64,000 nucleotides of DNA from Ophelia neglecta (Eukaryota), in NCBI GenBank assembly GCA_965285935.1, contig OZ260663.1, positions 75,268,001 through 75,332,000 of the forward strand. Direction: 5' to 3'. Within the stretch, counting starts at the first letter, position 1; every line of letters begins with the position of its first letter. Made by a program: the position numbers. Of this stretch, positions 42,001 to 45,000 are shown one piece after another.

Positions 42001-45000
42001 TTCAATGTCGTTTGTGCTCGGAAACTGTGTCCTTCACTTCAACTGTAGGGAGTATTTAATTCCTAACGAATTCGGACCGATTTAATTGACATTTCCTGAT
42101 TAATGATTTTGTATTATCTGACGGGTAGTGACTCAAATTTTTAAGATAAACACCAATATATATTCTACTACTGTGTTTTGCCGGTTTTCAAAACTCAATG
42201 GGTGCAAACTCTTCTCTTAACTAACAATCTTAATAGTGCAGAGGAAATGTTACCGTTTGAGGTGATGTCTAGCTGATGACAACTGATTTATATTAAACCA
42301 ATTTAATAACCACAGCACATTTGGATAAAACAACCAGTGATTAACATTAGTTCAGGGCGGATTACAGTTCATTTATGCGGACAACTCCGCATGGGGAACT
42401 GTGTAAGCACTAATGGAAAAACAAAATGTGATAACGTCATACTACTGCTATACATAATTAGCAAACATACCTTTTGGTGCCTCTTCTGTTTCACGAAATA
42501 CGACGTGTTTTTGACTGTTTTCCTCATTAATATACTCCATTGTATTTCTTATCTTTGAAAACTCAGGCCTTTCCTTTGGGTTTTCTTGCCAACATTGTTG
42601 CATGATAAGATAAAGTTGATTCGGGCAGCCGTCGGGTTTTGAATGCCGGTAGCCTTTCCTCACACTGTCAAGAACCTGCTTGTTGCTAAGCTTTTCTGAA
42701 ATTAAAGTAAAATTCACTCCTATTGAGGATCGCGTAAAATTGAATTGCCTACTTAAGCAAATACCCCAAGTGAAGGGACTCTTAAAGCAACATGTACCAT
42801 ACAAGAAGGCACTCAAACGGTTGGAATTAGTGAGGTTTGGAAATTATATTTGTATGTGTTGTAGTCGACTAGGTAATTGCATTTAAGGAAGTAATCACAA
42901 ACCGCTATGTAGTCTTAGAACAGACCTGGGTAAGGGATTTCTCCCTTTGTAAATATTTCCACCATTGTGATACCGTAAGACCAGACATCTGACTTGTGTC
43001 CGAATTGTCTTTTTAATATCGCTTCCGGGGCAGCCCAGCGAATGGGAAGCTGGACAGATTCATCTAGAATAAAGTATGCACAAATTGGTTACATGTGCAT
43101 GTCCCTCGTAAGCAGTGTATATTCCCGTAATATGCAAGATTACTGAGCAGGATATAGTCGGAAATTACTAATATGCAATTGGTAGTTAACTCACTGACAC
43201 TGTCAGAAAGAATTAATAAATTCTATAGTGAAAAGTATGGTTGTACTAGAAGGTCCTCTTATGATGTTAATTGGTTAATACGACAGGCTGCTTACAATAC
43301 AATTGAATTGCATTTTACGATGTTTTTATTTCGAGTTTTTATTTTACTTCAATTTAGATTTTGTATCAATTAGAATATGGTATATTATTCTCACCAGCTG
43401 TCGCATAGATAGATTCTTCCATCAGACGAGAGACGCCATAGAGACTGATTTTGACTCTGCGATTGGAGTCAACCATAACATTCCTGGCCGCTACATCTTT
43501 GTGAACAAATGAATGTTCCTCCAGATAGCTCATACCACAGACTATCTGCAGTTGAAAATATAAGATTAGTAACTTAATAAACGTATATGGTGGCCCAATG
43601 ACATAAATAATATTATTTTACAACATGGAATCAAATTAACGTCTGGTAATAAACTGGGGGTCAACAAGAAATTTTCGTTGTTGATAGGTTAACTCGATTT
43701 TTGTTCGTTTAGTGCTAAGTTACAGCACATATAATAAATTGCTAACCGTTTTAGTTTTATTAATAACTAATATTGGCTACCTGTGTGGCAATATCTATCA
43801 AAACCAAGAGGTCCAAGTCGGTTCCTGCGCCATCCCGAAGATAATGAAGCAGATCTCCATTTTCCATCCACTCAGTTATAATACTAATGAAGGATGCTCA
43901 AATAAATATTGACAAAACAAGCACCAAAAGAATTTCGTAGACAACTTTATTTGAGATGTTTAAAATGCTGGTTTCCATGGTAAAATAAAATGTGTTTATT
44001 AATTACCTGTAAGGTTCGCTTTCTACTACTATGCCATAAATGCGGAGTACATTGTTATGTTTCAAGGTCTTCATTTGTTTGCACGTATTTTCAAGTGTTC
44101 CTTTTTCCAACAACCCGTCTTTCAACACTCTCGCACATACAAGTAATGTGTCGTTGAAGTTCCCTACCGTATCGGATATATGAATAAGCTCTATTAATAA
44201 TTCAACCCGATTAACATGTGTGTGTGCGTGATGATCGAAAAGTCAGGCCTCACTGGTAAATAAAAGCCGTGAGGCCAGCGAGTCTTATGTTATTAATGAA
44301 TATGCATTACTGATACAGTAACGTTGGTCGCCCCCCTCAGTTTAAAGTTTAAGCATAATGACTTCAGCAACACAAATCTTACCCCGCCATACTTTTACTA
44401 GTTTCCCCTCGTGCACATTGTCTTTATATGTCAGGTAGTTTTCATCAATGGTGACTTTATTTTGAAAATTCTCACTCAAATCCCACAACATCGGGGGTTG
44501 TTTCTTGATGGGGTTCTCGATCAATTTCCCTGTGATTTTCAGACACTTCCTTTACATACGAGTATATGACAACAAATTTCTTATTTCCGCGAGGAGGCGA
44601 TATATGCTCTCAGTACTAGTACTATTATGCTGATAATAAGGTAGACAAAATGCCCACACAATTTTTAAGAAATTGGGTTTTAGCACTACAAAACATATCC
44701 TTCGGTAACAAAGTTTCTTACACAAGTTTCCCATGACCAATCAATTGTGTTTGTTGATAATGATAGTAACGCAACAGACCCACCTTGGTAGTGTTTTATC
44801 ATAGCTTCTAAGTTCTGAAAGACCTGGTCGCTTTTAATATGGTATCCCTTGGAGGAATGGATTGGGTACTCGGTGACGTATGGTCCTTTTGAAATGTCGT
44901 AGGACCGCAAAGACAAAACCAAGGAATCTGCAACACCTGAGTAACTTAGAATATCTTTTTTATACCTTTCTATACTGGTACAACTACGCAGAAACAGTCT

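Follow-up and report, generated by a model that had tools for sequence, protein, structure and literature searches.

A gene whose kinase exons stay open although its catalytic motifs are gone may be a working pseudokinase gene or a decaying pseudogene. This question is raised by a locus on the minus strand of a 64,000-nucleotide stretch of the Ophelia neglecta genome (GCA_965285935.1, contig OZ260663.1, positions 75,268,001 to 75,332,000 of the forward strand; the whole stretch is called the window here, and coordinates count from its first letter), which contains no N and has a G+C content of 32 to 42% in 2-kb steps. An earlier note had read the locus as a functional cytoplasmic Src-like pseudokinase rather than a pseudogene. 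Our analysis makes it fairly likely, on sequence evidence, that this gene (gene 1) is maintained and codes for a catalytically dead member of the Src module (SH3-SH2-kinase), as an old duplicate of an active kinase gene. Rather than being a dead gene, the locus probably provides a signalling protein that works without enzymatic activity.

The kinase part of gene 1, delimited from stop-to-stop open reading frames (ORFs) together with the sequence, consists of six exons (E9 to E14) running from 44529 to 42471; these bounds, given in the earlier note, coincide exactly with the first base of E9 and the last base of E14. All six exons have AG acceptors, GT donors, compatible phases and no inner stops. 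Each exon of gene 1 was compared singly with profiles and databases, and the scores are given per exon.

44383..44529, minus strand: E9, SH2-kinase linker and G-loop; MAFFT alignment and gene position
44007..44163, minus strand: E10, beta3 (VCAR), alphaC (Glu to Thr), alphaC-beta4 Met retained; alignment to Lyn, PF07714 positions 35-75, 15.7 bits
43781..43883, minus strand: E11, beta5, hinge and alphaD; PF07714 positions 78-109, 13.5 bits
43395..43545, minus strand: E12, alphaE, catalytic loop (HKD, with AARN intact), LYG and activation-loop Tyr; PF07714 positions 112-155, 54.2 bits; 9/12 conserved columns
42926..43063, minus strand: E13, P+1 loop, APE motif and alphaF; PF07714 positions 164-206, 61.7 bits; 11/11 conserved columns
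42471..42695, minus strand: E14, alphaG to alphaI and tail; PF07714 positions 208-257, 51.4 bits; 8/8 conserved columns

Comparison with Pfam, which the earlier note had proposed as a check, showed a tyrosine-kinase fold: five of the six exons matched PF07714 in order, over profile positions 35-257. E12, E13 and E14 each exceeded the 23.1-bit cut-off of this profile, and the N-lobe exons E10 and E11 fell below it. Both kinase genes in the window were only distantly similar to any solved vertebrate kinase.

Five motif changes had been reported in the earlier note, and they proved real when the exons were aligned to Lyn, EGFR, FAK, gene 2 (an active-looking paralog in the same window) and two Src-like proteins (P0137 and P0075); every string quoted there was present, VHEGKLVKV in E9, VCAR and TCKQMKTLKH in E10, and HKD, LYG and ESIYAT in E12. 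An ungapped HMMER alignment of E10 to Lyn placed Arg at the beta3 Lys (VCAR) and Thr at the alphaC Glu (TCKQMKTLKH). Lyn was the best of 69 PDB sequences matched by the E10 piece at E<=1 (E 8.7e-4), the top matches being Lyn, PTK6 and Src, and the beta3 Arg also aligned to the Lys of P0137, P0075 and gene 2. Alignments of E12 to EGFR and FAK (E12 matched 976 distinct PDB sequences at E<=1e-3) revealed that HRD had become HKD and DFG had become LYG; within HRD only the Arg was changed, to Lys, and the catalytic Asp is present. In an exon-wise MAFFT alignment of gene 1, gene 2, P0137 and P0075, the H-x-G-x-x-V of VHEGKLVKV sits on GxGxxG, with one of the three glycines left. Because E9 alone gave no Pfam match and no PDB match at E<=10, the G-loop was placed by this alignment together with the position of E9 in the gene. 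Gene 1 retained the catalytic Asp of H-x-D, the Asn, the AARN stretch, APE and the activation-loop Tyr (ESIYAT). A pseudokinase is usually defined by the loss of any one of the beta3 Lys, the HRD Asp and the DFG Asp; gene 1 has lost the beta3 Lys and the DFG Asp, and is a pseudokinase in sequence on these two residues.

The extent to which the losses were selective was seen from the conservation of the domain as a whole. An exhaustive HMMER search with E12 against 1.84 billion representatives returned 2540 matches at E<=1e-3, of which the best 150, with multi-domain proteins crowding the top, were stored. These 150, plus P0151 and minus the possibly vertebrate P0017 and P0009, made up 149 relatives; each exon was aligned separately, and a column was counted as conserved when one residue occurred in at least 80% of the aligned relatives. 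Gene 1 matched 28 of the 31 conserved columns of E12-E14, its three mismatches being a conservative Leu to Met change and the Asp and Phe of DFG, and gene 2 matched 43 of 44, the beta3 Lys and the DFG Asp among them. At the DFG-Asp column, 83% of the 296 aligned stretches had Asp and two had Leu, and the beta3 column contained Lys in 39 of 41 aligned relatives. Within the N-lobe of gene 1, E9 aligned to no relatives, E10 to 13 stretches in 12 proteins and E11 to 23 stretches in 17 proteins, compared to 88 stretches in 52 proteins for the N-lobe exon of gene 2. The PF07714 scores were lower in gene 1 than in gene 2 for the beta3-to-hinge region (29.2 versus 52.4 bits) and the catalytic segment (54.2 versus 72.4 bits), whereas for the last two C-lobe exons gene 1 exceeded gene 2 (113.1 versus 93.6 bits). 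A decaying copy would be expected to lose conserved columns everywhere; in gene 1 the ATP-binding half was eroded, so the loss is selective. The C-lobe is preserved no less well than that of the active-looking sister, and the pattern of motif loss exceeds chance. The statement in the earlier note that frames, splice sites, C-lobe motifs and the activation-loop Tyr were preserved was thus borne out by six intact exons and by E13 and E14, which together matched 19 of 19 conserved columns.

The paralog was located by tblastn of gene 1 pieces within the window, after which an exon model was built.

59310..63678, plus strand: gene 2, 11 exons; SH3, SH2, kinase, acidic exon and PHD finger

The motifs of gene 2 were canonical (VAVK, alphaC Glu, HRD and DFG, with a G-loop of GxGxxC in which Cys stands for the third Gly). 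By the models the two genes are divergently oriented and lie about 9 kb apart. Intron positions and phases were equal at all junctions common to both models, from the split within SH3 to the PHD exon, except one; gene 2 lacked an intron inside the N-lobe, and one SH3 was found in it versus two in gene 1. The alphaC-beta4 loop Met was present in both genes, that of gene 1 being aligned to the Met of Lyn. Across the 340 codons aligned, the pair exhibited 39% identity, a pN of 0.435 and a pS of 0.775; at this pS the synonymous sites count as saturated, and the duplication is old. Taken together, the 39% identity and the saturation indicate that the frame of gene 1 has been open for a long time. 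As a separate observation, the gene 2 intron after the first SH2 exon begins with an apparent GC donor (GCAAGT at 60125-60126, plus strand), where gene 1 has GT.

Beyond the kinase exons, gene 1 was modelled as 16 phase-compatible GT-AG exons from 50053 to 41247, about 760 codons without inner stops and with the frame unbroken in 16/16. The predicted domain order is SH3, degenerate SH3, SH2, pseudokinase, acidic exon and PHD finger, and it includes the ten exons below.

49941..50053, minus strand: E1, tentative first coding exon with an acidic and Pro-rich N-terminus; ATG at 50053, open, weak donor GTTAAA, phase fits E2; without homology support
49453..49565, minus strand: E2, tentative Pro-rich exon with an RxxPxxP-type stretch; AG acceptor, donor GTTATT, phases fit E1 and E3; without homology support
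49164..49266, minus strand: E3, N-terminal half of the first SH3; Pfam SH3_1 positions 1-23 (E 1.9e-4), tblastn to the SH3 half of the paralog (E 8.9e-4), donor GTAAGT
45708..45910, minus strand: E4, C-terminal half of the first SH3 and linker; SH3_1 positions 29-47 (E 0.045), longer ORF piece 17.8 bits, AG and GTAAGT, phases fit
45477..45567, minus strand: E5, N-terminal half of the second, degenerate SH3, with an in-frame ATG at 45553; splice sites and phases fit, no Pfam match at E<=0.1
45238..45336, minus strand: E6, C-terminal half of the second SH3, 99 bases as in the paralog exon; tblastn to the SH3 of P0075 (E 7e-4) and P0137 (E 0.007), no Pfam match
45030..45133, minus strand: E7, first part of SH2, with a Ser codon (45051-45049) at the betaB5 Arg place; SH2 profile positions 1-30, alignment to the SYK SH2 domains
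44784..44936, minus strand: E8, second part of SH2; SH2 profile positions 34-77 (E 0.042), splice sites and phases
41755..41883, minus strand: E15, candidate acidic linker exon; phases fit, 46% identity over 13 aligned residues to the acidic exon of the paralog
41247..41509, minus strand: E16, candidate last exon, PHD finger followed by a stop codon; Pfam PHD 24.3 bits (cut-off 24), DPF2/DPF3 matches, C4HC3 pattern

The SH3-SH2-kinase order of the Src module is therefore present in a single gene. Of the two SH3 domains, the one adjacent to SH2 lies at 45238-45567 and the distal one at 49164-49266 and 45708-45910 (both minus strand), its halves separated by an intron of 3253 bases between E3 and E4. 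The distal domain is canonical. The tentative 5' exons (49453-50053, minus strand) include Pro-rich RxxPxxP and PxxPxR stretches, which could be ligands for the SH3 domains of the same protein. E15 could alternatively be spliced in phase 0, through a second donor and acceptor. The tentative E1 starts with Met-Gln and thus lacks the myristoylation Gly, a soft result since E1 is uncertain, and the tail of E14 showed no C-terminal regulatory Tyr in a context that could be recognised.

At the 3' end, E16 matched Pfam PF00628 just above the cut-off and contains all eight C4HC3 zinc ligands; its best PDB matches were DPF2 and DPF3 (E 5e-6), and its Atlas look-alikes were PHD clusters. Across all six frames, the window has two occurrences of the PHD ligand pattern and no more, at 41247-41509 (minus strand) and 63428-63678 (plus strand). 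Each follows one of the two kinase genes closely on that gene's own strand, 0.96 kb from the last kinase exon in gene 1 and 0.35 kb in gene 2, and the same three phase-1 junctions connect kinase, acidic and PHD exons in both genes. This shared tail suggests a tyrosine-kinase plus PHD-finger architecture. Literature searches, judged from listings and the openings of abstracts, yielded nothing on a tyrosine kinase with a PHD finger or on a Src-module pseudokinase, and PMC7586955 had nothing relevant. PHD fingers are usually chromatin readers, and the phase-compatible PHD-finger exon at the 3' end of both gene 1 and its paralog makes the word "cytoplasmic" in the earlier note doubtful.

Sequences in the same lost state were found among the best 150 of the 2540 matches of E12. 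P0028 (62 residues) combines HKD with MCG at the DFG place, P0043 (59 residues) combines HKD with MYG, and the context of both is closely like that of E12; P0151, a near-copy or cluster-mate of P0028, also has HKD without the DFG Asp. The three fragments came from ENA contigs of 580, 620 and 17,585 bases, with P0043 on the 17,585-base contig. At the point that corresponds to the end of E12, P0028 and P0043 pass into sequence of non-coding appearance, which is what ORFs called from genomic DNA would show if they shared this intron. Both were closer to gene 1 (30/44 identical residues for P0028 and 27/43 for P0043) than to gene 2 (20/49 and 20/45, respectively), and they matched each other at 37/47; the activation-loop stretch around the Tyr was common to gene 1, P0028 and P0043. 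In a maximum-likelihood tree of 133 stretches and 50 columns, from which P0017 and P0009 were again excluded, gene 1 and the three fragments formed one side of a branch with a Shimodaira-Hasegawa-like approximate likelihood ratio test (SH-aLRT) value of 96. On the simplest reading, the dead state would predate the split of gene 1 and the fragments and would have been kept since. The fragments could be orthologs in other species or paralogs; we cannot tell which. Word-index searches added little: E12 gave two candidates among longer proteins, none of them significant, and no candidates among proteins of similar length, and the N-lobe exon of gene 2 gave 25 candidates among longer proteins, again none significant. 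These blanks are weak evidence because P0028 was missed although, by eye, it has several five-residue words in common with E12.

Could gene 1 nevertheless be an unprocessed pseudogene that is still open by chance, its motif losses being part of a general decay? In favour of such a reading are the degenerate state of the catalytic motifs, of the second SH3 and of the SH2 Arg, the weakness of several splice donors and the lack of an annotated relative in the word-index searches; but about 760 codons in 16 exons are free of stops and frame breaks even though divergence from the paralog is saturated, the conserved C-lobe columns of E13 and E14 are complete, the C-lobe Pfam scores exceed those of the active-looking paralog, the PHD finger has all eight zinc ligands and related fragments are in the same lost state. 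We regard the pseudogene as improbable. The preference of the earlier note for a pseudokinase over a pseudogene accordingly gains indirect support, through the intact 16-exon frame despite saturation, the C-lobe score and the three HKD fragments without a DFG Asp. An atypical but active kinase with non-canonical residues is a different matter. In WNK kinases a Lys located elsewhere stands in for the beta3 Lys, and CASK catalyzes phosphotransfer independently of Mg; gene 1 might likewise employ one of the two Lys residues of its G-loop stretch or dispense with Mg. The H-x-D Asp and the Asn five positions after it are retained, as are the activation-loop Tyr and APE, and the beta3 Arg preserves the positive charge. 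Against this, five motifs are altered together, Leu at the DFG-Asp place is unable to bind metal, two glycines of the G-loop have given way to His and Val, and the N-lobe is far more diverged than that of the paralog. In addition, Table 2 of PMC13259870 gives the ATP sites of the HKD human receptor pseudokinases PTK7, ROR1, ROR2 and RYK as occluded and that of STYK1 as unknown. Activity of this kind is very improbable, in our estimate, and gene 1 is predicted to be catalytically inactive.

Several observations weigh against a maintained, catalytically dead Src-module gene. Saturation renders dN/dS between the paralogs uninformative, and several donors, including those of E1, E2 and E15, are weak. 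The SH2-adjacent SH3 has Cys at the expected aromatic ligand-binding positions and was seen by tblastn to P0075 and P0137, not by Pfam. In SH2, an ungapped alignment placed Ser of gene 1 on the phosphotyrosine-binding betaB5 Arg of both SYK SH2 domains, a weak match (best E 0.0047); the corresponding place in gene 2, near 60100-60110 (plus strand), is Thr by eye, and the SH2 domains of gene 1 and gene 2 may not bind phosphotyrosine in the usual manner. Both paralogs have a basic residue one to three places after the non-Arg betaB5 position. The fragments P0028, P0043 and P0151 span one exon each, and no full-length relative with HKD and a lost DFG Asp was present among the best 150 of the 2540 matches. 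The 50-column tree is weak, its SH-aLRT value dropping to 76.7 without the three trait columns (the HKD Lys and the two changed DFG columns). Finally, the two PHD exons were not significantly alike (BLASTP E 0.15), so a common origin for them is argued from position and phase, not from sequence.

This last point also enters into a narrower alternative, in which gene 1 ends at a stop seven codons past 42471, the PHD ORF, E1 and E2 belong to separate transcripts and the product is a plain SH3-SH2-pseudokinase. E14 has a strong donor (G|GTATGT at 42470, phase 1), yet read-through at this site would end the protein seven codons later, and the PHD link is thus a predicted one. The weak donors of E1, E2 and E15 and the dissimilarity of the two PHD exons fit separate transcripts as well, as does the occurrence of the PHD pattern in none of the 151 stored proteins (the best 150 of the 2540 E12 matches plus P0151). 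The word "PHD" is also absent from the main text of PMC8662651, the supplements of which may list such families. On the other side, each of the only two PHD patterns of the window follows the last kinase exon of one paralog on that gene's own strand, phase-1 junctions connect kinase, acidic and PHD exons in both genes, and the acidic exons are alike over the 13 residues aligned. We consider the shorter gene rather unlikely, though a serious contender, and predict that the PHD exon and the 5' exons belong to one gene 1 transcript.

How does gene 1, read as a maintained pseudokinase gene, compare with known systems? Its motif pattern is closest to that of PTK7, for which Table 2 of PMC13259870 gives GXSXXG, VLVK, E, HKD and ALG; the likeness to PTK7 drawn in the earlier note therefore holds for HKD, the lost DFG Asp and the altered G-loop, and gene 1 has lost more. 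The abstract of that review names eight human receptor pseudokinases, and those with HKD are PTK7, ROR1, ROR2, RYK and STYK1; the beta3 Lys is kept in all five, and the alphaC Glu is kept in the first four and is Arg in STYK1. CCK4, the family of PTK7, is placed in an insulin-receptor-like subgroup in PMC8662651. These HKD receptors are transmembrane, whereas gene 1 has no receptor part, has SH3 and SH2 upstream and has lost all five motifs. PMC13259870 and the non-receptor kinase review PMC13272830, in which the seven pseudokinase passages concern the JH2 domains of JAK/TYK2 or are reference-list entries, are in keeping with the remark in the earlier note that known tyrosine pseudokinases are mostly receptor-type or JAK JH2. 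Like JAK JH2, which has a regulatory role (PMC13272830), gene 1 codes for a non-receptor pseudokinase of the tyrosine-kinase group. JH2, however, is located in the same chain as the active JH1, behind FERM and SH2-like domains, whereas in gene 1 the SH3 and SH2 are followed by one kinase-like domain only, there is no FERM match, and the active counterpart is a separate gene.

PMC8662651 defines a Src-module subgroup, with the alphaC-beta4 loop Met as its strongest constraint, and describes divergent SH3-SH2-kinase families outside it (SRM, Csk and the sponge Src-Aque1), which means that lineage-specific offshoots of the SH3-SH2-kinase architecture exist. Gene 1 resembles Src-module kinases (Src, Frk, Abl and Tec) in its domain order and alphaC-beta4 Met, and differs from them in its lost motifs, extra N-terminal SH3 and PHD tail. 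It differs from the Src family proper in that the tentative E1 has no Gly after Met and no tail Tyr was recognised. "Src-like", as used in the earlier note, is thus apt for the SH3-SH2-kinase order and less so for a protein with two SH3 domains, no myristoylation Gly in the tentative E1 and no evident tail Tyr. Three exon lengths of gene 1 (99, 104 and 151 bases) resemble those of vertebrate c-src. SLAP and SLAP2 are Src-derived SH3-SH2 adaptors that act as non-catalytic regulators of tyrosine-kinase signalling and have no kinase fold; gene 1, unlike them, retains a complete and well-conserved kinase-like C-lobe. Gene 2, the paralog in the window, has the same SH3-SH2-kinase-acidic-PHD order and likewise a replaced betaB5 Arg, but canonical motifs.

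These features can be arranged into a possible history. The ancestor would have been an active kinase gene, already equipped with a 3' tail of acidic linker and PHD finger, that was duplicated long ago. The gene 2 copy would have retained catalysis, and the gene 1 copy would have lost binding of ATP and Mg by way of bulky G-loop residues (His and Val), the absence of a Lys-Glu salt bridge and Leu in place of the metal-binding DFG Asp, while keeping the C-lobe, the catalytic-loop backbone (H-x-D and Asn) and the activation-loop Tyr. The product, if the gene is expressed as we expect, would most likely be a scaffold or an allosteric partner. Because the C-lobe and the activation-loop stretch around the Tyr are conserved, these parts may provide surfaces for docking or for accepting phosphate. 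Proline motifs are the predicted ligands of the first SH3, the PHD finger is predicted to contact a histone tail or some other partner, and gene 1 possibly modulates active relatives such as gene 2.

Other features of the window were noted as well. The 3253-base intron of gene 1 included short ORFs that looked reverse-transcriptase-like by eye (46750-48160, minus strand); a Pfam scan of eight of these ORFs was blank, and no long interspersed nuclear element (LINE) is claimed. Rfam gave no matches over the whole window.

37887-38168, plus strand: stop-free ubiquitin-family ORF, Pfam PF00240 61 bits, diverged from ubiquitin proper
21405-21644: tandem repeat with a 126-base unit, 1.9 copies and 85% matches

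A Src-module gene that lacks five motifs and has a C-lobe better kept than that of its sister would amount to a natural experiment on which parts of the Src fold are needed for non-catalytic work, and the kinase/pseudokinase gene pair in one window provides a ready comparison. As a tentative and, for now, rather unlikely extension, gene 1 and the three fragments may represent a conserved Src-module-derived family of tyrosine pseudokinases fused to a PHD finger, a non-receptor class outside JAK JH2 in which gene 1 is the regulatory half of a pair with gene 2. If this is true, a dead kinase fold with SH3 and SH2 domains would connect phosphotyrosine-type scaffolds to chromatin or to another PHD target.

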